The position numbers were made by a program, and so were the translations under genes. Below, one piece after another: positions 1,841 through 64,000 of a DNA stretch of 64,000 bases (position 1 is the first letter of the stretch; each line of letters opens with the position of its first letter). This DNA comes from Cenococcum geophilum (taxonomy: Eukaryota): the NCBI GenBank assembly GCA_050273025.1, contig CP158635.1, positions 19,282,001 through 19,346,000 of the forward strand, written 5' to 3'. The notes under the pieces are model-generated. The model saw only the letters and a program-made list of their open reading frames with translations, searched no databases and had not been told where the DNA came from.

Positions 1841-1882
1841 GGTAGGGGAGGCTCCCTTTTAAGTAGTAAATAATACCTATTT

Positions 1883-3796: not shown

Positions 3797-3904
3797 CTAT
3801 CTCCCTCCTTTTTATCTTTATCCTTAAAGATTTAAAATATCTCTAAGTTATTTACTAGAGGTATAATGTCCATCTAATTAATTTGGTTAATATTATTACT
3901 TATT

Positions 3905-32019: not shown

Positions 32020-32041
32020 GCGCGAACCCAGGCTTATAACC
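32020..32041 (-). promoter_or_regulatory. Primer-binding site of Copia A (half-tRNA-Met type)
   Basis: Minus strand GGTTATAAGCCTGGG directly after the LTR end; one RIP change from the GGTTATGAGCC PBS known from copia/Ty5-type elements. Confidence 0.75.
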
Positions 32042-32222
32042 TATTAAATTAAGGTTATGTAGCTAAAAACTCTGTGTATTGCTTATTTTCTATATAGGTG
32101 GTTGAAGAGATTTTAAGGAACTTCGACCGCCGGTCGAAGTTGTCTGATTGGTCAGATTCCTGCCAAGAGCTTTCTCCCACAAGTCTCATCACGTGATATC
32201 GTTGCGGGCTTGTTTTCCAACA
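32042..32222 (-). repeat. 5' LTR of Copia A (181 bp), only partly RIPed
   Basis: Minus strand begins TGTTGGAA and ends TTTAATA (ex-TTCAACA); contains CCAAT and TATATA; abuts the PBS. Partner LTR is outside the window. Confidence 0.75.
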
Positions 32223-32435
32223 ACTCGATTGCCCTAAATACACGAAGAACTCTCTGGAGAGAAAAGAATTGACAACAGTGTGAGTGTAAATAGTTGACAG
32301 CGTTGCCCGTCACCCGGGCAACCACCTAATCCTGCGAGCGACATAAGAACAAATACAGAAGCGCAGGCTAGGCGGCCGTAGGCCGCCGCCTAAGCATAAT
32401 AGAGGGCTATGCCCCATGACACCCACCTATGTTGA

Positions 32436-32690
32436 GGAGCAGAAGAACAGGAGCAGGAGCAGGAGCAGGAGCAGAAGCAGGGGCGCAAGCGGGAGCAAGA
32501 GCAGAAGCAGGAGTAGAATGCAAAGCGTCAAGAGAATCGGGATCAGGAGCGGAAGCAGGACGGTGGCAGGAGTGGAAAGAGAAGTGGAAGCATCAGCAGA
32601 AGCGTCAGCAGAAGCGGAAGTAGAAACGGAAGTCAGCAAGAGTAGAAATGGAAAACGCCAGCGGGAGGAGGGGCAGGAGCAGAAATAGAA
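32436..32690. repeat. Degenerate hexamer tract (AGCAGG/AGCAGA/AGTAGA)n
   Basis: Visible GAGCAGGAGCAGGAGCAGGAGCAGAAGCAG run; it generates the low-complexity ORFs in three frames. Confidence 0.85.
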
Positions 32691-33075
32691 ACGTCAGCTT
32701 GTCTTACCGAGTCCGAAGATTATTGTCCCAAGACGCCACCGTGGGAGCGCTATTATTGAAGTCTCCGCCGAGCTTCCCAGCCGGTCGCAGACGGCGGCCA
32801 CGACTAGCCGTTCCACAGCTTGTGGTATGGCTAATCGTAATTGAAGAAATTAAGGAAATATGGTCCCATCAACAAGGACGATGAAGGGACACCGGAGCCG
32901 ACGAGGTTCAATAGTCATCCGCATTGTCCACTATTTTCAGCAAGGTGTCCGAGCACTGGCCATCCACTGGCTATCTAAGCATGCGGAGCGGCGTCGAAAG
33001 GCAGTAGTAGTTTGAACGTGATGCCGGTTTGACGGATAGAGCTATGAAAATTATTTCAACATCATTGAGACCCAC

Positions 33076-34899: not shown

Positions 34900-36687
34900 G
34901 GCTAACAGGGCGAGATAGCGGGCAGGCTGATCACAGGCTGACCTCCGGTCCTAGGACGATGTAGGGACGAGACCAAGCTAGGAGCAGGCCGGCAAATCAA
35001 CCAACCCAACGCAAATTAGGGTCAAATTGCGCTGTCAAGATTGAGCCAATATTATTGCTCTAGATTGCCTACAGTGCACCCACCAAAAAAAAAAAACCCC
35101 CCGAGAAGAACGCTCGCTACGGTTTTGCCTCTTGGTTGTTGCAGGCGTCCGTATACTACGACTAAAATTATTAGTGCGCCCTCTACTGGCCTGACACCAA
35201 GGAAGCCGACGATGGGACAGAAATGAAGTCTGTCACAAATGTCTTTGCTTCCTAAGCGTTCGCTTAGAATACTTAACAAGGTCACTGACGGCCGCTGATG
35301 TGTGGAAGGGACAGGGAGCCAGGGTCTATTTGTTTTTCCGATTTCGAATGAGAATACTAGACATGACGAAGCAGATGCGAGGGAGTTTGGAAGATGAGTG
35401 TTTGCTCCAATCGCTCCACTCATAGTTGTTCGCGCCCGGTCTAAGCGAGAGAACGAACCAAAGGCAAGGCTGAAATGATCACTTTCTCGCAAAGGCCGAT
35501 AGAGAAGGGTCTGGGAGGGCTGATGTTTATATAGTGTACCCGTAAGAATTTAGCCCTGTTGGAATGTTGCCACCGGGTGGTTCCAGCACTTCCACCTGGA
35601 TTCCAGAAGCTTCACTCTCCGCTTTACCTGCCACGTGACGCCGATTTACAGACCTCGTAAGAAATAGCTCATCTCAGACGGGAACTCAGAGATTGTTCAA
35701 CGCACCCGTCAACAAATGCTCGTAGTATTCAATTGAATTTATTGAGTATATAATCGTGGTGTCGAGGCGGGCTAGCCCCTTTTTTGCCCCTTGGTAGCTA
35801 CAGGCCTCCGTAGTACTGCAAATGATGCTGACGCTAAACCAGATCTAGAGTAGCGGGCGCGGAGATGTCCGCGCAATAAAGTGGGGCTAAGATTCTGACA
35901 GAGAGTTTGAGGGTGAAGCCGATTTTGCAAGCGACTGTACACTGTATGACGCAATCCGAAATTGCGGGGTTGATCACTGATCTACCTATCATTTGTCACA
36001 GCCCGCTAAACTTAATAGGTCAGTGCGGCCTTCTAAGCCAGGACAGTATGTGCTTCTTACCAATTTACGTGCTGGGGGTGAATGGTGTTGGGCTAAACTA
36101 CGCAGCTCCGACCTAGCTCGCACGACCACCTAGCTTGCACGACCAGGGCTGCAATGTTAATTACGCACTAGTATCCCTTGATTAAGACTGGTAGAACACC
36201 TAACGTACGCCACCTGCATAGTTCTAGAGATCCCACTACTTTGTTTAAAGATGGGAAACTAAAGAAGTGTTGGGGTCTTGTGCACGTCATGGGCGTGACG
36301 CAGAACATGCAAGTCATTCTCAAGGGCTGCCTCGCAGTTTGGATAGCCACACCTGATTAATCGTCCCTTTTTAAGTTAATTAAGGTACTTACGGTAGAGA
36401 TGTCTCTTTAGAATGGCCCGGCTGTAGAACTAGTGCATATATTCTTCTATTAGCTTCGCTTTATCCCTAAGACAAAATACTTAAAGCCCGAGATCCCCTT
36501 AGAGAAATGTAAACGCGTTTAACCTCCATTATTACTATTAAAGTTTCTTAGCGTTTATATAAAATAGCCTATCTTATAAAATATAAAAGAAATTTTCTAA
36601 GACTACTTACTGTAATTAATCCTTAGTGTTAAAACTAAAATTGCACTATTTATAGAGTAAATTTATGTTTTAAACAGTTGTAGCGCT

Positions 36688-36981
36688 CTATAAGACCGTA
36701 CCGTATATATCGTTAGTATATTATTATAGGTGCATCTTATACGCTAAAACAACCTAATAAAGGTTATATTAGATCTTTTCCCCTTCCCTAATATTTATAA
36801 GGTGCTTCCGCTTAAAGTATTTACTAAGATTACCTAGGGTATAAAACGAATATATATGCTATTTAATTAATAGGTTTTTATTACCTAGATAAAGGAAATA
36901 TATCTTTAGCCTCTTCTTACTATATATTAATACTTTAGCTACTTTTAAGGCTTTAACTTAAGAGTTAATCTTGGCCTTATC
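36688..36981 (-). pseudogene. Starship captain (DUF3435 tyrosine recombinase), C-terminal Cys/His segment, RIP-degraded
   Basis: Reads KKRLKIYFLYLGNKNL...FYTLGNLSKYFKRKHL...I*YNLY*VVLAYKMHL**YTNDIYGTVL*; de-RIP KRPKICFLCLGNE.L...F.TPGDLSKHFKRKHL...CDLC..VL.HKMHLQ.HA..IHGTVS*; stop at 36690-36688. Confidence 0.85.
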
Positions 36982-37509
36982 TGTAACGAAGCCTTATAGT
37001 AGGAACTACAGTGGACTTATTAATAGGCTGGGTATATAGGTATAGAATAGTCAACAACGTAATAATAACTAGTGGAATAGTTGCCTAACAGATTAACTCT
37101 AATTATATTCTGAGATTTACTATAAAGGAGAGAACTATCTAAGTAGGGACTATGGTCCTTTAAATATACAACTATACTCCTAAGAAATCCCCTTAGTACG
37201 TAAGGTACGTATACTCTACCTACTCTATTATAGATCTTATAGATCCTATAGATTATATAGATTACGTTATATAACCTTAGTTACCATTCCTCGTTATTTA
37301 GCTCTATTAGCTCTATTCTAGACCGCGCCTAAATTAACTAATTAGCTTCTTCTAACTCCTCTCCTAGTAGTTATAATATTGTACTTAAAGCGTTTATAAT
37401 ACTATCTCCCTCCTTTTTATCTTTGTCCTTAAAGATTCCTAATATCTTTAGGTTGTTTACTAGAGATATAATATCCGTTTAATTAATTTAGTTAATATTG
37501 TTACTTATT

Positions 37510-38214
37510 ATACCTAAAGTTCCTTCCTCTTCTTTAATCGCTTGTTATGCTTAAACTATTACTATAATATTATCTCTTAGTAAAATTATACCGTCTCCAT
37601 ATTCTTATTGTGTAAAAGAGGGGTTAGTCTATATTATATTAGTAAGTCTATCTTTATAATAACCGTTCTCTTACTTAAAGTATACTAAAGCGAATATTTG
37701 TTTATCCTATAACGTTTACTCCGTCTTTAATGCTAAATATATATAACCTATTACTCTTAATAGCCGTCTAGTTCCTTAATTAATTTATCTTAGGGTTTTA
37801 TATTTAATCTGCTACTATACGGCTAAATAATAAACTGTTAGTGGCTCTAGTAAAGTTATACTATTCTTATAATGCTAAATAGGAGGCTATTAATGCTTAG
37901 TAACGGGCCCTTAAGTCTCGTCTTATAGCGTCCACTTAGTTAATTTATCTTAAAAAGGTTTATAAGAAAGTCTATTTTAAGAAGTAAAAACTTATAGAAT
38001 AAGGTTTATAGAAACTTAGCGATAAAAGAACGGATTCTCTTCTATCTAAGAAGGGAATAAATCTAAGTAGCTTAGTAACTACTCTTCTTAGGTCCCCCTT
38101 AGGTAACTTATTCTTTAGCAATTTTTTTTATTAATGCTACCTAACCTAATCTCTTCTAGTACTCCTTTACCTTTTTTATAGCGTTTTTTAAATTCCTTAG
38201 TAGTTCCTAGGTAG
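37510..38214 (+). pseudogene. Antisense accessory gene of gypsy A2, homologue of 3905-4589
   Basis: Same frame, Cys-motif positions and intron location as in A1; in-frame 21-nt insertion at 37901-37921. Confidence 0.65.
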
Positions 38215-39167
38215 TTTTAGTGTAGCCTATCTACTTAACCTTATACTATATTTTATTATTAACGTCCTTATAACTAATAATCTTTAAAACTTATTATTTA
38301 TCTTCTTTTTATCCTCTATATATATCTACTTTGTAAACTAATAGTTTAATATTTCTATATACTAGTTCTAGTATTGCAATATACTATATAGGGTAGATCT
38401 TTATCTTAGCTAGTAGGTTTAACTTAAACGTAACTAATAAAATTCTTTATATAATTTTAAAAGGTCCTAGTCTAATAGAGTTTAACTTCTTACTTAGTTG
38501 TTAACTTTTAAAAAATTTATATAGTAGCTATACTTTATTTCCCTCCTTAAGATCTAGTCCCTTAAATCTCTTAATATTATAGTACTTTTTTATTTTTTTC
38601 TTATACTTTCTTTACTAATTCTATAAGGGTTATATAAAGATTTATTAGTGTCTTTATTCTTTCTTTAGCTATACTACTTATTTTCTTTACTTATTATAGT
38701 AATAATAATATCCTTAGCTTATATATATAATTTGCCTTAAATAGTAATATGCCTATTTCTTCCTATAGTATTATATTATATATAAACTATATAACTAGTA
38801 ATAATAATACCTAATTATTCGATATATAATTAATATAATGTTTTAGATACTTCTCTAGCATCTAATTTAATCTTTCTATTTAACTCTCTGTCTGCGGATA
38901 ATATATAGTAGAAGTTACTACTTAAACTCCTTATTCTGCTAAAAATACCTCCTAAAATACTGCTATAAATCTTAAATCTCTATCTAATATAATTTTATTT
39001 AGTACTCCGTGTTTTATAAATACTTCTTTAATATAGATTTTAGCAACATCCTCTGCTAATATCTCCTCTGTATATATTATAAAGTAGCCCTACTTAGTTA
39101 ACTTATTTACTATTACTAAGATTATATTATAATCTTATCTAGTAATAGGATCTTTTAACTTTAGTAA

Positions 39168-42100
39168 TGTTGGTTACATAAGGGGATATCACGTAGCTAC
39201 GGTTCGTAGATAGTATGATAATTGTTATTGTTCTCTTCTTGAAGAAAGGGGTGAGGAACTTAAGGTTCCTCACCACGCTAATGCCGCGGCGGCACGTGAT
39301 GGTAACTTGCTATACGTGACGGTAATATGCCTTATATGGTGACTATTTGCCTTTATTTCTAACACTAGTAACTCTTCTTTTGTAGTTGCCATCTATATAT
39401 ATATACCGCTTAACTAGCGGAATAAAAATTAATCCTCCTTACTTACTATTGCTATTGTAACATAAGTCTTGCTATTCTAAAATTTGCCTCTTAGTATGTG
39501 GTGCTTTCTTGCTTATAAGTTATGGGTAGGTATCTTGTTAGTAGGGCCGCTAAGGCGCTAGCAGTAAGCGAGCTAATAGCGATTTTCTATCCTGGGGATG
39601 GAAAATCCTAATTGGCTGGTTTGAGTTAGGGTCTGCAGAATCTGACTAATTAGATAACTTTAATTGCTGGTTAAAGTTCCTAGATATCTTAAGACCTTAC
39701 GTAACTAAGAAATTTCTAGGGACTCCCTTTTAACCTAACCTTTAACTTATATACGCAGAGTATTTATATTAATAAACGTCTCTAGTGCCTTATTTGGGTT
39801 TGCCTTTGTTATTATATCTACTAGGTTATTTTAGCTATTAATCTATTAAATCTTAAAGAGTTCTTAACGCTTATAGGATTACTAAAGTGCCATAATATTA
39901 ATTATAAGGCGCTTCTCTTTTATAGTACTAAGCTTAACTAAACACTTATAGAGGGAATATAAGTCGGTGTATACGATTATAGGGATAACGGGAAGTTTAA
40001 GTTAATCTATAATTATCTTTAGGGTAGTTCTAATTGCAATTACTATATTAACTCCGCTAACCATTCTATATATCTCTAATACTAAAACACTTTAGGTAAC
40101 GCGCTTACTCTTAGTTAAGCTCTAATAGATAAGATTGCTATAGATTATAAAGTTATTCTCTCTAGTAAATTTGTTTATGATAATAATTTTATATCCTAAC
40201 TAGGAGCTAAAATCTTTATTGTTTATAAACGATCTATTAATAAATACAAAGAGCTTAGTAATAGGAAGATTAATAGGTATATAGAGTAGTCCCCGATTAA
40301 AATGGTTTATTTACTAAAAAAGACGCTTATTTAGGGCAAGGATATTATCCTTAGTTGGTTTCTAGTGTTAAGCCATAATAGAGAGATTAAATAAAGCCTT
40401 GGGTTAATAGATAGAAGTAATATAAGCTTTGTAAGCACGTTGCTCTATATACTCTTGCTTTAGAGAATTAACGTTAATAACGTTAATCTTCTTGCTTTAA
40501 CCCTTCTGGCGTAAAGTAATGGAATCCTTGTTTAGGGAGAGGATGCATCTATTAAAGAGTAATGGTATTGTTAAGTTAAGCTTTTCCTTTAGCTTTGCTA
40601 TAAGATTTACCTTTACTAGCTTATCCTCTTTAAGAGCTAAGAATTGGTCGTCTCCTAAGATAATTATATTATTAGTTTATATACTGACAATTCTAAATAG
40701 GGTTCCCGTGGTTATAATAAGGAAGCAGGGATTAAATATAGAAGTAGTTATTAAAAGCTTCTCTTTATGGTGCTTGCTGTAGGTAGCCTACTAATAAGTT
40801 TCTACCTCTGCGATTCTATATAATGGCTTAAGTATAACTATGATTATATCTTTAGGATACTGGTAGCGAATTTGCTCTGGAAGGTATGCCAGTATTAAGC
40901 GCTAAAGGGGCGTCTCTAATTAAGTGTAGGCTTAAGTAATATCTTATAAATAAACCGCTATTCTATTCTTTATTAAGGAGGGAGTTAGCGCAATAATAAC
41001 TCGCTAACTAGCTTGTTAAATTATGGGAGATTACGTAAGAATTACCTCCTTACTATTATTGTTGTGACCTTAGATAATAAGCCTTAATTTCTTAAATAGG
41101 GCGTTAGTAGCTTTGCCCTTAATCTTATTAACTATTCTTAATTTAAAGATATAAACTCCACCAAATTTGGTAGGGTCATACTTCTTAAATTTAAAGACTC
41201 CTCTTATAATGAGACTATTAATCTCCTACTTATTAGATGCTTAGAAAGGAGCTCCTAGAGTTATAATATAACCTTCCTTTTAGAGCTATTTTGCGAGCTT
41301 AAAGTTAGCCTTCTCCTTAGCTGTTATAAAGGCTATTAATAACTTAACTCTATTCTTAATGGCGGCAATAAATTGTTCTTTAAAATTAATAAGATGTTAG
41401 TAATTATATAATCCCTTCGGGTAACTTCTACCGCGTCGTGGTTATGGCGCATCTACTATAATTATATTGGGATTATAGTTGCCTTCTAGAGTATATTAAT
41501 TGTAGTTCTCTTTTAGGGTATCTTCTAGGGCATCCTATAAAGGCTTAGAATTATTATCTTTATAGTAAGGCTTAATAATAGTTAAACGGAATTAAGTAGG
41601 TCCGTAAGGTATTTAAATAATATAAGTTTAACTATTAATTATAATAAGTTGGTATGGGCCTAACCATTCTTTCTTTTTACGTTATACGCGTACCTTAGAC
41701 TAGAGTGGCAGATCGAGCGTAGTTAAGGTATTTAGGCTATTTCTTATTCCTAGTGCGTTATTAACCTAGCATATGGCGTAGAGATATCGCACCTCCTTTA
41801 TTGCCTTATAAATAGCCTTAGCTTATTATATAACGGAGGGAGATAGTAGAGAATTATTAGTTATTTAAGGGTAGGCGCTAAAAACTAGTAATGTAGGTAT
41901 AAGTCTATCCGGGCTAGCGGAATTGTTAATAGCTTTAACAGCTATTTATAAGGTAAGTTCTTTACTAGCGTCCTTTAGTTCTAAAGAGATAATCTTATAT
42001 ACGCGGCGTAATAGCGCATAATATTATTCTACTTTTTTAATACTATTATGTGCCTTAATAGGGACTTCCTTGACCTTAATTGCTATTGCCTTTATCTATT

Positions 42101-45100
42101 GTTAAAACTTTATAGATAAGAAGTTCTTTCCTATATTATAGATGATTTAATTAGGGGGTCCTAAATAGACATTAATCTAGCATAACTAAAGGGTCTCCTA
42201 TACGTTTCTGGCTAATATATCTTTTAAGAAACGCGCGGCTTAGAAGGAGGTTAAGAAGTTAATAACTTAGAGTACTAGCTTGCCGCTAAGATATATAACG
42301 TTAATAATAATATAGAAGTTAAAGTTATAGTTATCCTTAAGGGTAAACTTAAATCGGCTAGGGGACTTCTGGTTTATTTAGTAGTAATAGTAATACTTTA
42401 TAAGATGCTTAATTGCCTTAACCTTAACTTTATAGCCTACTTACTAAAGAACCCTAAGCAATTAATAAACGAATAGGTGGCTAAAACGATAGTATAGTTG
42501 GCGTAACTTTAACTTAGTTAAGTAGCTTTAAGTAATACTCTTTTCTAGTTAATAAAGGAGTAACTAGGGGTAACCCTACTTGCGTATAACGGGCACCCAA
42601 TTATCTCCTTAGATAAGTATATTCTTAAGGTTATTAAGCTTAATGCCTAATTTATTTATATCTCTAATATAAAATAAAAATAGGGTGTTTATAGGAATAA
42701 CGTGAAAACTAATGTACCCTAAGGGGGTTTAAACCCTAATTATGCTAAGAGAGATTATAGTACCTTTACTAAAACAAATTATATGCTAGCCTGCCGTTAA
42801 ATAGTTAATCTAAACAGAGCTATTAAGCTGCTAAAGGGCTCGAACTTAAGGTTCTCCTACTATAGATACTCTTACGGCTCTAGTATCCGGTATAATATTA
42901 TAGAAGACGTTTACTAAGTATCTATTATTAAAGGAAAACGCGGAGCTCTCCTTTAGCTTATTAAAGATATCTAACTTTATAATAGAATAGAGCGTAGATT
43001 AGTTATTAAGGATAGCGATAGTTTATATGCTATTTACCTTACTATACTTAGTAAAGTATTGGTTAGGTAAGTAGTCCTTAATTTCTATATCTATAAGGAG
43101 CTGTTTAGTCTTATTAACCTTACCTTTAAGGTCTTCTACGCCTTTATATTAAACTAGGAAGCTTTAGAAGTAGGCTATAGTAATCTTATTATTTCTAATA
43201 TTTCTTATACTCTAACGGAACTTATTATATGCCTCTTTTCGCTTATTAAGGGAGTGTCTAGTTAACTAGCAATTTGGCTTCTTATAAACGTAGTATTTCT
43301 TTTAGTAATTACTTTAAAATAAACCTCTATAAGGACCTCTATAATTACCTTATAGTTAACGTTAATTATACCCTCTTCCGTATTCCCTACCGCGGCCACT
43401 ATATATTTAATTAGTCTAGTTATAATTATATTAGTCGGGAATACTTAGTTAGGTAGGGTTTTTAGTATAGAACTATTAAGATTCTTATATTTATATTATA
43501 GTACCTACAGTAGAGCGTAGCTTAGTATATACTCCTTTAAACGTATCTATAGGTTTATATAGCGCTAAGTTACACTTAGGAACGCTATAGCATACTAAAA
43601 TAACCTAGTCCCTTAGGCTATTCTTATTTTAGTAAGTTTTGGTAAAGCTACGTTAGATTTTCTAAAGTTTATTAAAGAGTAGTTAAAGGTACTCTAAATA
43701 AGTCTTTGTTAGGTTAGAAGTAATAACTCTTTAGAACATAGTCTCCCGCCATTTAGATATATAAAGTTAGCAATTCTTATTAGTCTTAAAGTGGGCTCTA
43801 ATAAGCTAAAGCATTACATTAAAGTTATAGTTTTTACCCATAATATGGTCGTAATAGAATATTACCGCCCGTCCCTTTAATATAATAGAGAAAGCGTAAT
43901 AGTACTAGTGGCGTTAAATTCTAACCTTATTGCAATAGTTATAAAAGACCTATAGTTTTACTCTAAGTATATTATATAGTTCTCCTTTAAACTTCTTCTC
44001 TTTATCCGAATATACCTTTATTAGATTCGTAACTTCTTATAGTAAAGGCTTACTAGTTAGCTAAAGTGGAAGAGGTAAAAGCGGAGCAACTCTAAGTAGG
44101 AGAGCACCTCTAGGTAGGAGAGTAGCTCTAGGTAGGGGGTTAGCGTTCTAGGGGTTTTAATACGAATTAAAGTTGCCTTCTAAAGAATATAGGTTATTTT
44201 TAGGTTTCCGTAGTTAATATATAATCTTAGCTTCTGTCTATATTAGTTCTTCTATACTAATAATAACAGCCTAAATATTGCTAGCAATTAGGTTACTGTT
44301 CTTAGTAATATATACCCTATTCCTATAGAGGAAGTTTTAAAAGTCCTAAATAATATTAACGTTGCTAAGTACTTAGGTATCAGCAGTCTATCCTATAAAA
44401 TCCTCCCTAAAATACTCTTATAGTTGTAAGTCGGTATAGTATCTATTTTAGTAGAATATAATATAGTGTAGGAGAAAGCCGTTAACTTGTTTTGCGGTAT
44501 AAGTTATTATATTAAAGGCGAATTCGTCCTAATCTTTATTAATAAGTTTTGCGTACTTAGCTACCCCTAGTGGTAAGAAGTTTTTCTAGTTATTTAAGGT
44601 AGGCGTAGCCATGTTTTTGGAGGGAGGGAAGTGTTATTAGTATAGGGATTATCATTTGGTACGCGTTTGTAATGTATATTTATTATTTAGTACGCGTTTA
44701 TTATTTAGTACGCGTTTATAACGTATATTTACGGTTATAGGGCTTAGGACTAGTTCTAGCCTTAAATCGCGAAGACTTGTAAAGCGTATTATTCTGCGTA
44801 ATAGACGCAAGAATCCGTAATCTTAGAAAGGCTTAGGACTAGTTCTAGCCTTTAGATCTTTAGATTTATAGAAGAGTTCTATTTAAGGTTTAGGACTAGT
44901 TCTAACCTTAAAAGATAGCTTTCTTTAGCACGAGTAGCACTAGTACAGTGGCTTATTTCTTTTTAGTGGAATACCTAGCTGTTCTATGGTATAATAGTAA
45001 AGTTAATTACTAATTAGTGTTAGTTACACAAGGGGATATTACATAGCTATGGTTCGTAGATAGTATGATGATTATTATTGTTCTCTTCTTGAAGAAAGGG

Positions 45101-45214
45101 GTGAGGAACTTAAGGTTCCTTACCACGCTAGTGCCGCGGCGGCACGTGATGGCAACTTGCTATACGTGACGGCAATATGCCTTATATGGTAACCATTTGC
45201 CTTTATTCCTAATA
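39168..45214 (-). mobile_element. Copia LTR retrotransposon of GalEa type, family D, full length, RIP-degraded
   Basis: 197-bp LTRs 39168-39364 and 45018-45214; TSD AGTAA/AGTAA; ACTAATTAG at 45009-45017; integrase, RT and RNase H motifs homologous to family C but a different LTR. Confidence 0.92.
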
Positions 45215-48200
45215 AGTAACTTAATAATAAAGTCCTATAATATAACCTCCTATAGTCTCTCTAGTAATTTAATAGGTTATAGCCTTCTATATAGCTTATG
45301 CCTTATTAATTTATTTCTTTAGTAATCTAAACACTCCTTTATTACTTTTCTTATAATATTCTAGATTCCGTTAATAATATATTCTTTTTATAGTCTTAAC
45401 ACTAAGCCTATTACTCTATTATGTCCTTAAGTTATCCCCTTACAAAAATCTTTTATAAAATGCTCTGCTATGCTTCTTAGGATATATTTCGCCTCTCTAT
45501 ACTTATATAATATTTTTTTTCTTTAGGTGCTTTAACTATTCTTTTAGTTATACCTTAAAGATCCTTTATACCTAAAAGCTTTTTAGTGTTTTATAGACTC
45601 TTTCTAGTTTATTATCCTCTTAAGTTACTACTAGCTTAGGGTAATTATATCTAATTAATCCGTTACTATCTCTACGTAGTATTACTCCTAATAATTTCTT
45701 ATTATTTTATAGTTTAGCTTTTTTACTAAGTATATCTGCTCTTATATTTTTAGTTCCTTTAATATACTAAATTTTAAAATAGTATTCTATAAGCATCTCT
45801 ACCTATCTAATTTATTTATAATTAAGTTCTTTTATTATTAGAAACCCCGTTAGGTTCTTATAATCTATTTTAACTATAAATAGTTTTTCTACGCCTTATA
45901 AGAATACTCTCTATTTCTTAAGTACTATAACTATTCTTAATAATTTCTTATTATAGATATTATAGTTTAACTCTAGTAGTGTTATCTTTTAACTATAGTA
46001 TGCTATTAGGTGCTATATATCCTTATACTTCTATAATAAGTATACTCTTAGTATATAGTCTAATACGTCTATTTTTATAACCGTGTTTAGTCCTAGTTAG
46101 TAGATCTTAAAGATTAGCTCCTAAGTAAACAGCTCCTTAAATTCTTTAAATAGCATCTTTTATTTATCCCCCTATATTTATAGTTCCTTTTTCTTTATAA
46201 GCCTAGTAAATAGTTTAATATTCTTTAACTATTATACTATAAACCTTCTATAGTAGTTATAAAACCCTAAAAATAACTTTAACTATATTACATTCTCCAG
46301 TTCTTACTAACTTACTATAGCTTTAATCTTTTTTAGGTCTATACTAATATAACCTAATTTAATAATAAATCTAACAAAATCGGTCTTCCTAGTAAAGAAC
46401 TTGCATTTTTTAATTACTACTAGTATCTATTCTTTTTATGGTCTCCTTAAAACCTATTTAACGTATTCCCTATACTCTTCTTTAGTTATTAAGTAAATAA
46501 TAATATCGTTAAGGTATACTATAATAAACTTATTAAAGTATTCTCCTAATACGCTATTAATTCTTTTCTAAAATATTATAAGTATATTTATTAATTTAAA
46601 TTATATAACTAATAGTTTATATAGTCACTCTCTTAACCTAAAGGCTGCCTTCTATTTATTACCTTCCTTAATTCTAATCTAATAGTATACCTATCTTAGA
46701 TCTATCTTTATAAAGATTTACGCATTACCTATTTAGTCTTAGATTTCGCTAATTAAGGGTAAAGAATACCTATCCTTTTAAGTAATACTATTTAACTGTC
46801 TATAGTTAATATATAATTTAAGTTTTTTATTTTTCTTTAGTATAAATAGTACTAGATAACCTACTAATAACTATAATAGTCTAATATATCCCTTTCGTAG
46901 GTTTTCTTAGATAAACTCTTTAAGTACGCTTACCTTTTTTTAGGTAAGCTTATAGGTTAGAAAAAACCTTAAACTTATTTCTAGTTCTAACTCTATCTTA
47001 TAGTTCTATACTATATAATTTACTAGCTTTTTACTTTCTAAACTCTATAATTTCTTACTATATTTATAGTATCTTTTTAGTATATAACTTAAGCCTTACC
47101 TAATCTCTTTATATATCGCTCTAACTTAGTACTATACTAACTTAGTTTACTATTATATTTTATAGCGTTAAGTATCTCTAATATTAACCTATTCTATAAT
47201 CTAATTAATCTTTAAGTTATACTTCTATAACTAAGGCATTTCTAATACTACCATATTCCGTCCTAATAGTAGGATATTAAAAGATATCTTAATTTATTTT
47301 TCTTTAATAGTTATCTAAATAGGTCCTATTTTAAGGTTAATAATCCCTCCTCTATAGGCTATTAAATCTCCTAAAATTATAACTAGTGGGTAAGGTTATT
47401 CCTTCTATTTATAAAGTAATTCTATTTTCTTAACTATTGCTAGTAAGATATAGTTTCGTATTACTCCGCTATTTATTAATACTTTAAACTATTAATCTTA
47501 CTATTTAACTTATAAATTTAGGTATTATCTTTAAATTCCTTTAAGGGTCTAAGGCTTTACTACTAGCTCCCTCTAGTTTTATAAGCCTCTACTTTTCCTA
47601 ACTATTAGCTACTTAATCCTATTTATACTTAGTCCACTTTTAGCTAATACTTAGTTTACTTTTTATCTTTAATATACTATAGATATATATTCTCTAGGCA
47701 TTTCCACTACTATTTTTTATTTAAGTATTTTTCTATAAGGAATCTTCCTAGTTAAAGTATTAAGTCCCCTTTTTTTTTTAAAAACTTTTATTAAATGCTA
47801 GCTATATATATACTTAGTATTTCTATACTATTACTTATCTAGTGCCTAATATATCCTTATAAGGTACTTCCAATTCTTTTTCTTTAGGTTTTTATATATC
47901 TTATATATATTATCTATATATATAACCTATAATAGTATATAGTATACTAGATGCTTTAGGTTAACTCTAAACTTATTTTTATTTTTAAGTTTAAACCTTT
48001 ATTATATTACTCTAAACGTTATAACTTTATTTATAGGTACTAAGATACGCCTTTTACTTCTTTAGTTCTCTAATTATTTCTTTAAATCCTTTAATATTAT
48101 AATTAAGGCTCCTTTAATATAAGTTATAGCCTTCTCTATAATTAGGTGGTCTTAGATAACTTATTTATCTAACTATATATAAAAATCTTTCCACTTATCG

Positions 48201-48324
48201 TTATATCGCTATCTATACTACTTTTAGTATAGCTACTAAAGTATATACGGCTTATCCGTAAGGAAGTATCTTTTTATTACTATATTATAATAGCCCTTTA
48301 TATATTATTCTTTAAATCTAATAA

Positions 48325-51300
48325 TGTTGGTACCACTAGGGATACCTATTGCAATAGGCCGGAATTGTAGTTAAACAGTCTTTGCTGGTTAATACGATGA
48401 TAGTTAATTAATTCTTAAAGCTGTGCGAGGGAAAGGGGCTTAAGGCCCCTTCGCTTTGCTTCGCTTCGCTTATTATGGCTTAGTGCTATATATAAATATT
48501 TTAACATAGGCAGTTTTTTCTTTTATAGCCTAAGACTAGAATATATATAAATTGTACTAGATAGTACTGGGCAGTATTAGGTAGATTGCCATAAACTGCC
48601 GCACATTGCCGTATATTGCCGCATATTGCCGCAAATTACCTAGGACTGGGTAGGCTTTTCTCCTCTCTTTACCTATCCTTCTATTTATACCTTAAGGTAG
48701 TTAGTATCTAAGAACTTTTCTAATGCCTTATTAGGGTTAGACTTAGTTATAGTATCTATTAGGTTGTCTTGGCCGTTAATCTAGCGGATCTCTAGTAGTT
48801 TTCTTCACTCATATAATTGGCGAAGGGCTATAATGTTAATTATTAGACGCTTTTTTTTAGTAGTTTTAAGCTTAATAAGGCATTCCTAGAGTAAGTAAGA
48901 GTTAGTATAGATAATGGTTGGAATTTAGAAAAGACTAAGTTAATCTATAATTATCTTAAGAGTAGTATTAATAATAATTGCTATATCTACTCCTCCTACT
49001 ATGCCGTAGATCTCTAATGCTAGGACGCTCCTAGTTACTCGCTTACTTTTAGTTAAGCTATAATAGATTAAGTTTCCCTTAATCTAGAATTTCTTCTCTA
49101 TTATCTTAGTCTTATTTACAATAATAATTTTATATCTAATCTAGGAACTAAAATCTTTATTATTTATAAATAATCTATTAATAAAGATAAGTTAAGGGTA
49201 ATATAGTTAATGCCTTAATCTATATACTTTATCTGCTATGCAAGTCTCTTATTTAAAGTAGTAATATTAGCTTCGGTTAGATTCTAGTATTAGGCAGTAA
49301 CTAAGAGGTTAAATACAGCCTCTAGTTAATAGATGGTTGTAATATAGGCTCTATAAGCCTATTACTCTCTATAGTTGTTCTAGAAGTTAGGAGATTTAGT
49401 ATCTATATACTTAAGCTTCTTTGCCTATTCCTTTTAACGCAACTAGATGGTATTCTTATATTATGTTAGTACACATCTATTAAAAATTAATGGGTTTTCC
49501 GGTGCTAGGGCTTCCTTAGGCTTTATAAGGAACTTAGCTTTACTAAGCTTATTATCCTCTAAGACTAAGAATTCTTCTAATGCTAAGATAAGTGTGTTAT
49601 TAGTTTGCATTCCTATAAGGCTAAATACCTTCTTAGTTATAATTAGGAAGCAAGGGTCGTAGGTAGATATAATTATAGATAGCTTTTCCTTATAATGCTT
49701 ATAATATATAGCCCACTAATAGGTTCTAGCTTTAGGAATCCTATACAATGGCTTTAAAACAACTATAATGGTATTTAGTGGATATATATAGATAATTTCC
49801 TTTAGAAGATTTGCAAGAATTAGTTATTAAATAAAAGTCGTTAATTGGGTATAAGCTTAAGTAATATTACGTAGCCATATCTAGATCTTCTTATCTAGAA
49901 GTTAAAATAAAGACGGCGCTAGTGCCGTAATAACTCGTTAACTAGCTCTCTAGATAGTTAGGGATTGCGTAAGAATTATTTCCTTTCTGTTGTTATTATA
50001 CGCTTAAATAATAAGTCTGGATTTTTTATATGGGGTATTTATAGCTTTACCCTTAACTTTATAAATAATTCTTAAGTTAAAAATCCTAACACTAGCATAC
50101 TTAATAGGATCCTATTAAATAAAGTTAAAGACTCCTTGTCTAGTTAAGCTATTAACTTCCTATTTTATTAAAGCTTTAAATAGTGCTCTAGGAGTATTAA
50201 TTTTACCCTCTTTCTGTAGCTTTAATATAAGTACTATATTAGCTTACTCCTTGCTTATTATAAAAGCCATTAGGGTTATTTAGGTATTAGTCTCCTTAAT
50301 AGTAGTAAGGAAGGCTTAGTTAAAGTTATCTTTATTAGTAAAATAGTGGCGGGTGCTTTAACAGGTAATAATTTCTTTATTAGATACGTCTTTATTATAT
50401 AATCCCTTTAATTATCCTTAACTATATTATATAATTAGTTTTAGGTTAACTAGTTTAGTTTCCTTATTTAGTTCTTTTTCCTTATTAGATTAGTTAACTT
50501 AGTCCTCCTATTCTAGAACATTTAGTATCTCCTCTTTTATATAGTATGGTTTAATAATAGTTAATTGGAAGTTAGTTAGTTTATGCGGTATATTAATTAT
50601 ATATATTTCGCCGTTAATTGCTAATAGTTTATACGGTCCGTTCTAACCGTCCTTTTTACGCCATACACGTACTTCTAAAAGAATTAGTAAACTTAGTATA
50701 GATATAGTATTTAGGCCGTTTCTTATAGCAAGCGTATCTTTAACTTAGCGCTTTACTTAGAGATAATAAACTTCCTTAATAGCTGCACAGATTGCTTTAG
50801 CTCTTTTAGTAATAGATGGCGATAGAGTATCTATTTTAGTCATTTGTAGATATACCCTAAAGACTAAAAGAGTGGGAATAATTCCATCTAGTTTAGCTAA
50901 ATTATTAATGGCCTTTACAGCTATCTGTAAACTTATTTCTTTATTAACCTATTTATCTATAAGCTCTTCTTAGATAATTTCGTAAGCTTATCGCAATAGA
51001 GTATAATATCTCTTAACCTTTTCTATACTGTTATAGGCTTTTATAGGAACTTTCTTAATCTTAATTGCCATTAACTTGGTATATTGTCTAAATTTAGTTA
51101 ATAAGAAGTTCCTTTCTATATTGTGAACTAAGTAATCCGGTGGTCCTTGGTAAGTGTTAATCTAGCACATTTATAGTATATTTTAAGCATTCTTTATAGA
51201 TATATCTCTTAAGAACTTAGCAGCTTAGAATAATATTAAAGAGTCTACTACTTATAGAACTGGCTTGCCATCTAAGTATATAATATTAATAATAACTTTA

Positions 51301-54300
51301 TAATTAAATTCGTAGTCATCCCTTAAGGTAAACTTAAATCTACTAGGCGATTTCGTATATATCTGGTAATAGTAACAGTATTTTATAAGGTATTTAATAG
51401 CCTTAGAATTTACTTTATATCTAGCTTATTAAAGAACTTTAGTTAGTTATTAAACTAATAGATAACTAAAGCGTTTATGCAATTAACGTAATTTAGTTTT
51501 AGTTAAGTAACTCTAGGCAATACTATGTTCTGGTTAGTAGAGTAACATCTATAAATGGCCCCATTTTTATATAACTAGGATAATCTTATTGCCTTAGATT
51601 AAAATATTTTAAAGATTATCTAGCTTAATACCTATTTTATCTATATCTTAGATATAAAATAAGAATGGTATATTTACTAAGATAATATAGAAGGTAATAA
51701 TACCTAGCGGGGTAGGAACTTAGATAGTGCCTTAGAATAATATAGTGCCTTTACCAAATCTAATCTTGTAAGCTCCAGCTATGGTAGTATTAAGTTAGAC
51801 ACTAGTATTAAGCTTTTATAATGCCTAAAATTAAAGTTAGCCAGTAGTTAATATACCTATAGCTCCGCTATCTAGTATAATGCCCTAAAAGACCTCTAAT
51901 GAATATTAGTCCTTAAATATAAATACTAAGGTCTTTAGCAACTATAGTAGTAGTGCCTTAAAGATATCTTCGCCAGTAACCGTGTGCTAGGTAGACTGGT
52001 TGTTTAAAATAGCTATAGTCTAGGTACTATTAACTTCTCTAAACTCCGTAAAATATATACTATATTCCTCCTTAATCTCTATACTTATCATTATATGGTC
52101 TACTTCTCCTACGTTATTATTTAGAAGATCTTCTACTCCTTCCTATATAGCAAGGAAGCCGTAATACTAGGCTAATATAACTTCCTACTCTCCTATATAT
52201 TAGGTATATTATTAATACTTAATATATACTTATTATCTGTCTTCTACTATATACTTACTTAACTAGTATCTAGGCTTATTATAGATATAGCATTGCTTCT
52301 AACGGGGTAGGTAGTAGTTGCGATATCCGCTATAGTAGTTTCCTCTACTTTAGTATCCTTCTTTATGTAGACGTGATTTACGCTAGGAGCCTCTTTGGGG
52401 TCCTCTATATATATAATTGGTCTAATTCTAGTTGTACTGCTTAGTATTACTTTAATTATCTTGCTTCTGGGGGGCAGTTTACGTATAGTATTATTATATT
52501 TTTTAGGTATATACTACTGTTCCTACTACTAATCGCAACTAAGTATACATACCCTTAAATATAGTGGCCGGGTTATATAATACAAGACTATACTTATTAA
52601 CACCTCTATAGGCACTAATAACTTAATCCTAAAGACTATATTCTCTTTAGTATTCTTCTAATAGTCTACGTTAGATCTTTTAGAGTTTATTAAAGAGCAT
52701 TTACAGATACTTAAGTCGTAATTTTTCTAAGTTGGCGTTAATAATTCGCTAATATATAGTCTCTCTCTATTCCAATATATACAGCTAGCGGTTTTCCTTA
52801 GTCTTAAAGTATATCTTCACTATTTATACTATTATAATAAAGTTATACAATCTTCCCGTAATCTTATTATAGTAAAAATTGCTTACCCAATCCTTAAGCA
52901 TAATTAGAAATGCTATGTAATATTATTCCTCTAGCACTTTAACTATAATATAATAATTATAGAATACTTATAGCTTGGCATTAAGAATATTATATACTTC
53001 TCCTCTATACTTCTTAGTATTATTAGTATAAAACTTTATTAAGTCTATAAGTAGCTTAGTTAAAGTAATCTAGGGTTATTATTAGTTCTACATATTCTAT
53101 TTATGGTAGTGCTAGTAAGGTAGTTAAGCTTATTCATTACATAGTTGTGTAAGTAATATCCTTATTACAATTGCGGGCATTTATAATAGTAATAGCAATT
53201 TAAACCGGTTTATTAATATAGGTAGGTTATATAGTATAGGTAAGTTCTATAATACAGGTATATTTAGCTATAATAGTGGTAAAGGAGGGTAGGTATGTTA
53301 ATCTTGTGGGATATCTTATTAATGCTGCTTTGCTGCTGCTAGTATAGCCAAGGTAGCTTAAGGTGTCTCTAGAGTAGTCTAGGGTATTAATGCTTCTACT
53401 AATTTTAGTGCTTATAACTTACAATTTATAGGGTTCCACTATAAATAAAATTCGCCGCCTTTTCTAAGCTGCTAATTAATTTCTTCTTTAGTCTATTTAT
53501 AATATTCTTCTTCCTTAATAGCAATTTATAAGTTTATAGAAAGGGTTCTCCTATCTCTACCTACGTAGCATCTATATACTTATAAGTAATCCCGTAATAT
53601 TTAAACTAAATTCTTATAACTAAGATTAAAGATATCCTTTATCTATCCTTTAAAATCTTCTTAAAAGTATTCCTATAGGATTCGGTCCTTAAACTTCTTA
53701 TCTTAGTAGTACTGGATATAGTATATAATATATCTATTTACTATTTCTGTATTAAGGTTAGCTTTATTTATAGGATTAAATAATTCTCCCTATTTCTCTT
53801 TATTATAGGCGTATTTATCTTATAATAATATATTAATTAACTGGTTCAAAAGGGGTTAATATAGTTAAAAGTAATATAAGGTCGGGTTTGTAGGTAGATT
53901 AGAGGTAAAGTTAAGGTTATTATAATAACGTTCTTAATAGAGACTTAGAGCATTAGTAGAGGGAGAGGTTCTTAGCTTACCGATTCTACTTAAGTCCTTA
54001 TAAATGTTGTTGTTCTGCGTAATAGACGCGACTTAAAGAGTTAGACGGAAAGAAAGGTTCTTAGCTTACTAATTCTATATAAGTCCTTAGAAATCTTATA
54101 TAGCTTCTTTAACACTTACTAAAGATATATACTAGCTTCCTCTAGAAGCCTTTAAAGTTACTTTACTAATTACCTCTAGCACATTCCTATAAAGGGGTGG
54201 GGATACAATCCTGATATTTACAGTTTAGCCTCTTCTAAACAGATTCCTTACTATTCTATAGTTAATAATTAATAACCACTAATTAGTGTTAGTATTACTA

Positions 54301-54468
54301 GGGATACCTATTATAATAGGCCGGAATCGTAGTTAAATAGTCTTTACTAGTTAATATAATAATAGTTAATTAATTCTTAAAGCTATGCAAGGAAAAGGGG
54401 CTTAAGGCCCCTTCGCTTCACTTCGCTTCGCTTGTCGTGGCCTAATGCTATACGTAAATATTCCGATA
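48325..54468 (-). mobile_element. GalEa-type Copia family C copy 2, full length, RIP-degraded
   Basis: 182-bp LTRs 48325-48506 and 54287-54468; TSD AATAA/AATAA; RT VVLKPLY(G)IP(E)A(G)T...STYDPCFL...MQT(DD)TLI ~49590-49770; colinear with C1. Confidence 0.93.
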
Positions 54469-57050
54469 AATAAAGATCCCTAAATCCTTTTTATTTTTTA
54501 GTTTAGTAACCTACTTAGCTCTTAGTATATCTACTTTAAGCCTATTAGTAATTTTTTATATATCTAAGTATACTAAACCTCTTATCTAGTTTCTATTCTT
54601 ACTATACAATAATTCTCTACTGGAATTCTTTTATAGTTTCTTTTAGTTTATATCTTATAGATAAATCCTTAAAGTTTTCTTACTTCTTAATCTTAGTATT
54701 AATATTTTAATCCTATTACTAGATTCTATTTATAATTTCTTTAATAATCCTTATTTACTTCTAAAAATCTTAGTTCTATAGGATTTTTAATCCTAAGCTT
54801 ACTTTTATTTTAAGCTTTACTCTAGCCTTAATTTAATTAGGCTTTACTAGTGTTCTTATCTTATCTTAAGAATTTTAAATCTCACTTATCTTATCTTAAG
54901 AATCTTATATCTTTAGGAAACTTTATCCTAAGCTTATTTATATATTACTAAACTAAGCTATTACTCTACTTTATTAGTTATTGTCTATTATAGGTCCTTA
55001 AGCTTACCTTATTTTATTTTAAGAATCTTAATTATCTTATATCTTATCTTAAGAGTCTTAAGCTTTTAGCCTTTTGCCTTTATTAAGTGCTAAAGTAGTT
55101 TACTATTTTACTTCTCTTATATCTCGTAAAGTAATAAATATTATATCTAGTAGGGTCTTAATTTTAACTAATATTCCCTATTCTATAGTGGAATTATCCT
55201 CTACCTCTTATATAATATCTTTAAGGTCTATATACTTTTAGTAAGCTACTTTTATTACCTTATTATTATAAAATATTTTACCTATATTAAAATTATTATC
55301 CTTAATATCCGATCTATAAATTAGTTTATTAGTTCCTCTAAATTCTATAGATTTTAGCTCCCATAGCTAATAGCTTACGCTATACTTAGCGTCCTTATAA
55401 ATTTAGTATACGTTATTATAGTAAAACGCAAAACTATTAATTAAACTCTCTTTTATTCCTTATAGTATACTATTATTCCTTTATACGTATATATCTTTTA
55501 CTAGTCTTATTTCTTTTACTATATAGTAACCTTAACTACTCTTATAGTCTTTAATATAGTAACCCTATTTCCCGTAATTTATATAAGTTCCTTCTTTAAA
55601 CTATTTTTCTTATTATAGAGTTCACCTAAATGTCTTCTATTATTAAGATCCCTAGTTTAGCCTTTACTCCTTAAACCTTTAATTACTTAATCTTTACCCT
55701 CTAAGTTTCTATAGTTATTTATTTTATTTTTTATTTTCTTTAATACTACTTAGGTCTATTAGCTCTGCGCTATACTATAGTTTTTAACTTTAACTTTATT
55801 ATTATATGCTTTACGCCTTATATAACTATTGAACTCTATCTTAACCTTTCTTAGTTTACTCTCTTTAGTAGATCCTATTATTAATCTTAATTACTTAATT
55901 AATTAGATTTCTAAAAGTGTCTATATCTTTTATTAGGATAATTATATCCTAGACTTTTACCTTAAGTCCCTATTTATACTATACTATAAGCGCCTTATTA
56001 TTCTATTTAACTTATATTACTAATATTTAAAATTGCGTTATATATTTAATTGCTAAAGTCCTCTATACTAGGTTTTAAAGCTTTTTTTCCACTATTATAG
56101 TTACCTCTAGGTCTCTAAATATTTGTGTTAGTTATTCTATAAACCTATTTTAACTTAAAAATATATACCTAACCTCCTAGTTAGTAGTTATTATACTATA
56201 TTCTTATATTTTTATAAGGTAAGATTTAAACCACTTAAGTGGCCTTTTTATTAAGAATAATCCTCTATAAATAACTTAATCTATAAGCGTTTCTAGTTTA
56301 ACTCCCTTTATATTACCTTAAAGTGTATTTATATAAGAAATCCCTTAAGCTTTAACTTCTTTCTTAAGAATTATTTAATTAAGGGTAACTTAACCTTAGC
56401 TACTTTAATCCTACTAATCCTTTCTTTAAGTATTTTGTTATTATCTATTAATTAATTAACTATTTCCTATAGTTGTCTAATAGTAACTAACTAAGAGTTA
56501 GTATTTTTTGCTATGCTAGTATTATTACCTAATCTTAATATAGTTGCTATTATTAATATTGTTATAGCTAGTGCTTTTAGTAGTATATTATTTAACTTTT
56601 TTTACTATAACCTTAGTAGTAAATATATAATAAAGCCTTATAGTAGGAACTACGGTAAACTTATTAATAGGCTAGGTATATAGGTATAAAATAGTTAATA
56701 ATATAATAATAACTAGTAGAGTAGTTGCCTAATAGATTAACTCTAATTATATTCTAAGATTTACTATAAAGAAGAGAACTATCTAGGTAGGGATTATAGT
56801 CCTTTAAATATATAACTATACTCCTAAGAAATCCCCTTAGTATATAAGGTACGTATACTCTACCTACTTTATTATAGATCTTGCAGATTCTATAAATTAT
56901 ATAAATTACGTTATATAACCTTAGTTACTATTCCTTATTATATAGCTCTATCGGCTCCATTTTAGACCGCGCCTAAATTAACTAACTAGCTTCTTTTAAC
57001 TCCTTTCCTAGTAGTTATAATATTGTACTTAAAGCGTCCGTAATATTATT

Positions 57051-57917
57051 TATTGTCTTAACTAGTCTTATATAACTACTAGATTGTTTATAAAGTTTAA
57101 AAGCAGTAGGGTATATTTTACTTTCCTTAACCTTATAGTATTATATAACCGTATAAATAGCCCTATTATATTAATAAATCTCCTCTTTAAATATAGTACC
57201 TAATAGGCTAACGACCGCATTAACTAATTCCTTTTATTTTAATAATATGCCTTTATAGAGATCCATTATTACCTTAGCCTCTATATTAACTTAAACGCCA
57301 ACAAGCTACAGTTTAATATTATATACTAGTTGCTCCTATTTCTAGGTCTCCTTAATATCTTTAAAAAGTATATACCGCTAGCGTTGCCTTTCCCTATTAA
57401 TTTCACCATTAAGCGCCTTATACTTTAGATATTTTATAGCTTTACCTTTAAGACGGTATTTAAGTTACTCTCTTTACTTAAGTAGAGAATAAATAGTAGG
57501 ATAATTGTTAACTAATAAAGATTATTCTATTATAAGCCGCCGTAGTTATTAAAAATTAATTAAACGGCTTATAGTATAAGCGGCCCGCATTAGTATATCT
57601 TAGGGCTAGAGGCCTTAGATAATCGCCTATATATCTACTATAATACGTTATAATAGGTAGTGCCTTAAGAACGTTTATATATTAGTATACTATATTATTA
57701 GGTTTTATATAGCCTTACTAACGTTGCCTATATTTTTCTTTAGTACTTTTAATAGAAAGGCTAGTTGTAACAGAGCTTATTATTCTTATTAAATGCCTTT
57801 TTAGTATTATATCTAAGCAAATATAGGCGAGACACCTAAGTAAAGCTAGTAATCTCTTTAAGCCCTTTAGTCTAAGGTATAAGGGTAAAATATAAAAGAG
57901 GTTTATTATAAGAAAAG
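57051..57917 (-). pseudogene. Starship captain (DUF3435 tyrosine recombinase), catalytic and central segment with one intron (57780-57728)
   Basis: Reads PLLYFTLIP*TKGLKEITSFT*VSRLYLLRYNTKKAFNKN / GNVSKAI*NLII*YTNI*TFLRHYLL*RIIVDI*AII*GL*P*DILMRAAYTISRLIN; de-RIP L.YSTL.PW...LGEITGF.QV.RPYSLRYGAGKAF / GNVS.A.QNL.MQHA..RTFLRHYLSRR.T.DTQA..RGL.PQ..LMRAACTMSRSIDPRRPRRL. Continues in frame into 36981 after removing A2. Confidence 0.88.
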
Positions 57918-63900: not shown

Positions 63901-64000
63901 GATAGAAAGATTAAATTAGATATTAGAGCAGTATCTAAAATATTATATTAATTATATACAGAATAATTAGGTATTGCTATTACTAGTTATACAGTTTATA
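57918..64000 (+). mobile_element. Ty3/gypsy family A copy 3, runs off the window within integrase; second insertion in the captain gene
   Basis: 5' LTR 57918-58338 is the reverse complement of the A2 LTR; gag, protease, RT, RNase H and integrase are colinear with A2 on the opposite strand. Confidence 0.92.

Follow-up and report, generated by a model that had tools for sequence, protein, structure and literature searches.

Remains of a probable captain-class (DUF3435) tyrosine-recombinase gene split by nested retrotransposons in Cenococcum geophilum

Cryptons are small-to-medium tyrosine-recombinase DNA transposons. Starships carry at their 5' ends a DUF3435 gene, the captain, whose position and orientation are conserved, and the captains form a clade apart from the Crypton recombinases (PMC9156397). 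In the same description a region is called 'Starship-like' when a DUF3435 gene occurs with DUF3723, FRE, PLP and/or NLR genes (PMC9156397). The paper on the starfish tool uses six active-site positions, and states that many of the Starship recombinases that are predicted may be pseudogenes for which no element is recoverable, as well as that repeat-induced point mutation (hereafter RIP) and nested repeats make copies diverge (PMC11162782). Here we analyse a stretch of 64,000 nucleotides of Cenococcum geophilum (contig CP158635.1, positions 19,282,001 to 19,346,000), referred to as the window, in which two AT-rich pieces of the minus strand, 57917-57051 and 36981-36688, are separated by A2, a Ty3/gypsy retrotransposon with long terminal repeats (LTRs). 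Judged from sequence, the two pieces are the rear half of a dead DUF3435 (captain-class) tyrosine-recombinase gene with a probability of about 0.9. This value covers the whole explanation including the history proposed below, while the Starship part is graded apart, at roughly even odds.

A preliminary description of the window had read the two pieces as one captain gene, recognised after reversing C>T and G>A changes and open to a check with DUF3435 profiles. Pfam was searched with unaltered translations, stops written as X, in nine frames (six of 57051-57917 and the three minus-strand ones of 36600-36981). One of the nine, the minus frame from 57917, matches DUF3435 (PF11917) with an E of 7.8e-16 and 58.4 bits at a cut-off of 25.8, and so belongs to the family by gathering score; its residues 64-253 lie on profile positions 212-411 of 418. 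No match at E<=10 came from the other eight translations (of 57051-57917, two on the minus and three on the plus strand; of 36600-36981, three on the minus strand). The profile match was thus obtained on the unjoined piece 57051-57917 alone. The same unaltered translation, used as phmmer query against 1.84 billion representatives, retrieved 139 relatives at E<=1e-3, of which 38 remain at E<=1e-10. When these 139 were searched back against the window with tblastn, they led to three places only, 57036-57916, 36262-36987 and a HET-domain gene, the last through P0058 alone.

The long relatives are full DUF3435 proteins (P0004, P0031 and P0132, E 1e-107 to 1e-158, with 4.8e-158 for P0031). P0004, an 'unnamed protein product' of 614 residues from Alternaria alternata whose DUF3435 domain starts at residue 101, aligns in tblastn through residues 268-314 with 57913-57773 (46.8% identity, in a frame neighbouring that of the main exon), through 312-496 with 57728-57108, and through 508-604 with 36987-36697 (43.3% identity). 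The best relative, P0002 (312 residues), aligns through residues 3-207 with 57704-57075 (39.5% identity) and, on the other side of A2, through 216-311 with 36981-36694 (46.9% identity, E 8e-20). P0002 ends in HGTVS, where the window has GTV followed by a single codon and then the TAG stop; the zinc-finger-like tail ending HGTVS, as first described, is recovered in the P0002 216-311 match. The motifs proposed there after RIP reversal are what P0002 and P0004 actually read.

At the join, the unmatched gap comprises 8 residues of P0002 and 24 nt (57074-57051) of the window; as 8 residues equal 24 nt, the join 57051|36981 is in frame. The test of the join is provided by uninterrupted sister loci. 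These are four metagenome loci, L001-L004, recruited with P0047 as probe (7.8-10.2 kb of contigs read), which carry the captain as DNA, 79-89% identical to the window, with a narrower range of 85-89% for the uninterrupted gene. In L003 the empty site is contiguous, with window 57915-57051 equal to L003 4334-5198 and window 36981-35943 equal to L003 5199-6236, and L004, L002 and L001 are likewise uninterrupted at the A2 site. Read in the direction of the gene, the sequence at the empty sites is ...GACAATA|GATAAGG... or a near variant of it by RIP, and in the window A2 is flanked by GATAA at one end and by AATAA at the other. The A2 target duplication is single in each of the four empty sites; hence, excising 36982-57050 restores the pre-insertion sequence exactly. 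Together with the P0002 alignment, these empty sites bear out the earlier proposal that the two AT-rich stretches form one minus-strand gene, in frame once A2 and one copy of its target-site duplication are removed. The sister copies are uninterrupted at the A3 insertion point too (A3 is a second gypsy copy, which cuts the gene at 57917), neither A2 nor A3 being present in them. Some of the short phmmer matches resemble open reading frames from RIP-affected copies elsewhere, and P0047 spans the A2 junction.

The intron predicted at 57780-57728 also holds. The upstream exon (frame of 57916) ends at 57781 and the downstream exon starts at 57727, with a shift of reading frame across the interval. 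L003 reads ...AAT G|GTAAGC...ATATAG|GC AAC... at this place, with a canonical GTAAGC donor and a TAG acceptor, and the window donor is ATAAGC (G>A). In L002-L004 a 43-47-nt gap falls at the same protein position, and P0012 appears to read through the unspliced intron there. The gene assignment is made because of the PF11917 match, the homologues on both sides of A2 and the uninterrupted sister loci.

The captain share in the window is equivalent to P0004 residues 268-604 of 614, i.e. the rear ~55% of the gene; the N-terminal ~45% is expected beyond A3, about 1.8 kb past the window end. In L002-L004 this N-terminal part adjoins the A3 insertion point on its upstream side, so that the captain N-terminus which the preliminary description called for beyond A3 is borne out only indirectly. 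Among 24 relatives of at least 400 residues, three near-invariant columns fall within the window: an Arg (21/24) in the ...LRY... of the 57781-57917 exon, which is kept, a His (23/24), which has become Tyr, and a Tyr (24/24), which is kept, the latter two in the 57051-57727 exon. These Arg, His and Tyr columns are presumably catalytic residues (tyrosine-recombinase box II); the rest of the active-site positions fall outside the window. The captain gene cannot make a recombinase, and therefore anything that it once moved is now immobile.

RIP changes C to T on either strand, and its marks account for the decay of the gene. There is no open reading frame: the 289 codons of the 57917 frame include 33 stops, each of them TAA or TAG. 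Compared with P0004, 27 stops occur in 329 aligned codons (19 in the 185 codons of the core), and 19 of the 27 are explained by undoing C>T/G>A. The same reversal explains 100 of the 173 mismatches to P0002 (74/122 in the core, 26/51 in the tail), as compared with 8 for the opposite transitions (7 core, 1 tail) and 17 for transversions of equal freedom (8 core, 9 tail); for P0004 the figures are 113 of 192, with 7 for the opposite transitions and 21 for the transversion control. Between copies, transitions to transversions in the 867-nt core are 122:3 for window against L003, 107:3 for L004 and 128:5 for L002, and in the next 504 nt (tail segment) 55:0, 37:0 and 64:2, respectively, and also 68:0. 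Of the changes seen in the window alone, 29 are C>T and 26 G>A, whereas transitions in the reverse sense number 4 and transversions 2. The dinucleotide indices of the captain core are 1.68 for TpA/ApT and 0.29 for (CpA+TpG)/(ApC+GpT), versus 0.59 and 1.36 in the HET gene. Near-pure C>T/G>A differences between copies, depletion of CpA/TpG and an excess of TpA are all present, and the C>T/G>A origin of the damage put forward in the preliminary description is confirmed by the reversal with its controls and by the transition-only differences between copies.

RIP is saturating and flat over both captain pieces, no less extreme at the centre of the 867-bp piece than towards its margins, and ends abruptly near 36500, ~480 bp from the A2 edge, where G+C rises from 0.23 to 0.41. 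This edge is within ~25 bp of 36478, where L002 homology ends. In the 540 bp beyond it that are common to L003 and L004, transitions to transversions are 47:4 and 81:2, with the window unmutated at most of the differing sites. The simplest reading is that only the captain and ~200 bp were repeated in the window's genome when RIP acted, and the transition-only spectrum would fit RIP acting on a recently multiplied element. Segment 35938-36500 is nearly RIP-free in the window, and its L004 copy is heavily mutated (72 AT alleles vs 9).

All four sister copies are also dead, with 7-18 stops per aligned block, and no intact copy was found among them; their transversion divergence from the window is at most ~0.8%. 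Past the captain, blastn homology to the window extends to 35943 in L003 and to 35938 in L004, and only to 36478 in L002. The gene behind each copy differs: a HET gene in the window, a HeLo-like STAND N-terminal domain in L003 (PF17111, E 7e-13, 3.2 kb away) and a protein-kinase fragment on the opposite strand in L002. L003 has its own gypsy insertion in the captain 5' part (L003 1-3339), of the same family as A2 and A3.

It should be noted that L002 carries an in-place inversion of the initial ~650 bp of the unit, which take in the opening ~55 captain codons (L002 2535-3229 vs L004 151-804). The L002 inversion has a ~12-bp overlap at its inner breakpoint, and the outer breakpoint is the end of the L004 homology. 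No recognisable terminal repeat was seen in the breakpoint sequences for an element end at L004 ~151.

Table 1. Coordinates of the captain remains, retrotransposons and neighbouring features within the window.
Feature	Position	Strand	Remarks
Captain exon fragment	57781-57917	minus	P0004 268-311 plus first base of next codon; cut by A3 at 57917
Captain intron	57728-57780	minus	53 nt; donor GT changed to AT by RIP-type mutation
Captain exon, C-terminal half of DUF3435	57051-57727	minus	many TAA/TAG stops
Captain C-terminal tail, CxxC/HxxxH patterns	36688-36981	minus	stop TAG at 36690-36688
Segment shared with sister copies	35938-36687	minus	downstream of captain, holds relic tail
Relic of second, divergent captain-type tail (...LRHAHDVH.T)	36262-36480	minus	~215 bp past captain stop
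Intact HET-domain gene, 624 codons	33076-34950	minus	PF06985 E 1.8e-34; not RIP-mutated
Ty3/gypsy element A1	3372-11326		minus-strand order protease, reverse transcriptase, RNase H, integrase
Repeat nest	11687-30394		recognised by self-similarity
Ty3/gypsy element A2	36982-57045	minus	LTRs ~36982-37410 and 56626-57045
N1, LTR element nested in A2	39163-45217
N2, LTR element nested in A2	48321-54472
A2 target-site duplication, first copy	36977-36981		TTATC; overlaps captain tail piece
A2 target-site duplication, second copy	57046-57050		TTATT; one C>T away from TTATC
Ty3/gypsy element A3	57918-64000	plus	inverted with respect to A1/A2; exits window end
A3 LTR copy	57916-58331
A3 candidate target-site duplication	57913-57917		AAAAG

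Concerning the region downstream of the captain (Table 1), the segment shared with the sister copies holds a relic of a second captain-type tail, to which P0002 246-310 aligns at 36474-36274 (tblastn, 38.8% identity, E 1.7e-9). Its position is kept in L003 (5727-5912) and L004 (3277-3459), and window, L003 and L004 have two stops in common; on these and on the lack of an excess of RIP-type mismatches (7 of 39, against 5 and 5 in controls) a working small gene was rejected. The relic looks like a fossil of another DUF3435 gene carried along with the captain unit. The HET gene lies on the same strand as the captain, 1.7 kb downstream of its stop. The best relative of the HET protein is 57% identical and the closest named ones come from Coniosporium (47%) and Epicoccum (44%); the window protein itself is not in a collection of 5.8 billion proteins. 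This gene is possibly stranded cargo, or simply a neighbour. P0058, a protein of 654 residues from Delitschia confertaspora, combines a HET domain at 44-200 with the last ~95 DUF3435 positions at 558-650. Here a single gene model has probably been drawn over both a HET gene and what remains of a captain, and the pairing of HET and captain in P0058 echoes the window neighbourhood.

Nested LTR retrotransposons make up nearly all of the window outside a GC-rich island at ~32-36.5 kb, whose G+C is 0.47-0.56, the remainder ranging over 0.22-0.41. The Pfam domains of A1 follow one another on the minus strand as PF13975 (under its cut-off), PF00078, PF17917, PF17921 and PF24626, with no Pfam match on the plus strand. 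The two LTRs of A2 have 90% identity, and A2 follows A1 collinearly in three blocks, between which N1 and N2 sit. A1 7953 down to 1787 maps to 57916-63997 in inverted order; hence, A3 has reached A1 ~1787 at position 64000 and ~1.8 kb of it is outside the window. A1, A2 and A3 are one Ty3/gypsy family, recognised by LTR pairs, by a target-site duplication of 5 bp and by domains that run from protease through reverse transcriptase and RNase H to integrase. This family has been inserted three times independently in captain copies, namely as A2 and A3 in the window and once elsewhere in L003, which may reflect targeting of RIP-mutated, probably heterochromatic DNA.

The DNA flanking A1 and the GC-rich island is probably old retroelement too. 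A tandem repeat with a ~70-bp unit occupies 1884-2160. On the minus strand, 2700-3371 bears a weak copia-type trace (retroviral polymerase SH3-like, E 1.3e-4, under cut-off) and 30395-31900 gag-like text with no Pfam match. Within the island, 32250-32700 is GC-rich, of low complexity and coding-looking (Ser/Arg/Glu-rich), with spurious Pfam matches only.

In the history that we propose, a captain-bearing unit would first have multiplied in this fungus or a close relative. RIP would then have struck the duplicated stretch, leaving the 27 stops in 329 aligned codons, the broken intron donor and the Tyr in place of the near-invariant His. Two copies of one Ty3/gypsy family would have landed in the captain thereafter, A2 at 57051|36981 and A3, inverted, at 57917/57918, and A2 would later have been invaded by two further LTR elements. 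It is the order of amplification, RIP and insertions that we infer, beside the observed gene identity, join, intron, insertions, RIP spectrum and multi-copy status.

The claim that a Starship sits here has fared less well than the rest of the preliminary description, since the gene class is that of a captain and the Starship itself did not emerge. Still, the captain unit could, with the scales about level, once have been a cargo-carrying Starship whose interior took in the relic tail and the HET gene in the direction of lower coordinates. This reading is supported because DUF3435 is the captain class, with a clade separate from Cryptons (PMC9156397), and because a near-identical captain with differing downstream sequence fits what is described for Starships with related captains (PMC12257634).

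Several observations weigh against the explanation as a whole or against its Starship part. P0004 residues 1-267 have no tblastn match anywhere in the window, so that only profile positions ~168-418 of 418 are present, the PF11917 domain is not full-length and the N-terminal catalytic half is unseen here. RIP leaking from the flanking gypsy copies is possible in principle. In six frames the Pfam scan of non-repeat DNA covered 30395-33080 and 34900-36300; it further took in 36301-36700 in the three plus-strand frames, selected open reading frames within 32058-35549, and 1-3371 on the minus strand; outside it lay 1-3371 on the plus strand, 11327-11686, 36301-36700 on the minus strand beyond the frame of the second tail, and the interiors of the repeat nests. 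In the DNA so scanned there is no DUF3723, FRE, PLP or NLR gene, the only matches being HET (PF06985), the weak copia-type one and spurious low-complexity ones; with no companion genes there, the region does not qualify as 'Starship-like' in the sense of PMC9156397. No boundary repeats and no empty site of a large element are visible in the window, and any 5' boundary of an element would, like the captain 5' part, be situated past A3 and past position 64000. Common to the copies are the captain and, behind it, 0.2 kb in L002, 0.75 kb in the window or 1.7 kb between L003 and L004, and homology between them is not resumed within the 3-4.5 kb readable beyond each break. So short a shared stretch is unlike whole-element copies of a giant transposon: a large cargo moving with the captain, in copies alike over their full length, is not what is seen within that reach.

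These same points feed the strongest alternative, to which we give a real chance, somewhat under even: the captain copies would be orphans, either a short captain-only repeat of a few kb or scattered fragments of old elements, multiplied and mutated by RIP, with the HET gene and the island being ordinary DNA and no Starship past or present. Homology among the five copies ends 0.2-1.7 kb past the captain stop, at three different points, with no resumption in readable sequence, and the companion genes are missing from the scanned DNA. Moreover, the HET island is RIP-free and thus was single-copy, and element-less pseudogenes may be frequent among predicted Starship recombinases according to PMC11162782. 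The copies are, however, without the common 3' end expected of a compact autonomous element, and DUF3435 genes figure in the literature as the captains of elements that carry cargo (PMC9156397). Genes of cell-death or allorecognition type, often linked to Starships, furthermore stand behind two of the copies (HET in the window, PF17111 in L003).

A more novel but unlikely possibility is that the five copies represent a recently amplified captain lineage that conserves only the captain and a short trailing segment with the fossil tail. This would be one of two things. It could be a Starship lineage in which the cargo right behind the captain is exchanged at a much higher rate than the captain itself diverges, with allorecognition and cell-death genes preferred. 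Otherwise it would be a captain-only unit that is mobile, compact and smaller than all Starships so far described.

Much less probable is that the captain was single-copy and was mutated only by RIP leaking from the two flanking gypsy copies. Each captain piece is indeed within ~430 bp of a RIP-mutated repeat, and on the low-coordinate side RIP ends ~480 bp from the A2 edge. Against this, the captain pieces have no gradient of RIP and end in the sharp G+C step at ~36500, this edge coincides with the end of L002 homology at 36478, and at least four other RIP-affected copies of the captain unit exist. Leakage as the sole cause of the damage was rejected on the lack of a gradient and the other copies. 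That the DUF3435 likeness arose by chance, from DNA of 72% A+T and the many degrees of freedom in reversing transitions, has practically nothing left in its favour and is refuted by Pfam and phmmer matches of the unaltered translation with the other frames and strand empty, by the transversion control (17/173 vs 100/173) and by the relatives at the DNA level.

With the dead captain gene as the preferred reading, the locus illustrates that a captain is recoverable from DNA of ~72% A+T, with a stop about every 12 aligned codons and a 20-kb retrotransposon nest splitting it. Annotation based on open reading frames would miss this captain, hence Starship surveys of RIP-active fungi may undercount old elements. 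The locus also gives a sequence of events, in the order proposed of amplification, RIP and repeated gypsy insertions, and flags an un-mutated HET gene as possible stranded cargo. Existing knowledge of Starships is unchanged by it.

Among the closest described systems is a Voyager copy of Botryosphaeria dothidea, whose DUF3435 captain is, as in the window, presumed inactive through an LTR retrotransposon in its coding sequence (PMC9156397). That copy differs in that its Starship has a defined target site and carries OCH1 as cargo (PMC9156397), whereas in the window the same gypsy family has inserted twice, with further elements nested in one of the insertions, RIP is saturating and no element boundaries are visible. 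RIP damage is described for the Frontier captain, likely RIP-inactivated, and for Limos of Fusarium falciforme, RIP-affected, where differences are almost only transitions, as they are here; the Limos 5' end has 511 transitions vs 45 transversions (PMC12257634). Frontier and Limos were recognised by their DNA identity to an intact reference Starship (PMC12257634), while no intact copy was found for the window, whose damage, at 27 stops in 329 aligned codons, is also heavier. In Wallaby the captain is a pseudogene whose numerous premature stops made starfish miss it, and it is thus, like the window captain, hidden from gene prediction; it belongs, however, to a delimited genomic island that otherwise has the properties of a Starship (PMC11162782), which cannot yet be said of the window locus. 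Fungal Cryptons also encode a tyrosine recombinase, and DUF3435-bearing repeats were first annotated as Cryptons, from which DUF3435 captains differ in forming a separate clade according to PMC9156397. Dead captains are hence already in the literature for each of three causes, RIP, LTR insertion and premature stops (PMC9156397, PMC12257634, PMC11162782); the window locus combines all three kinds of damage and adds no new kind.

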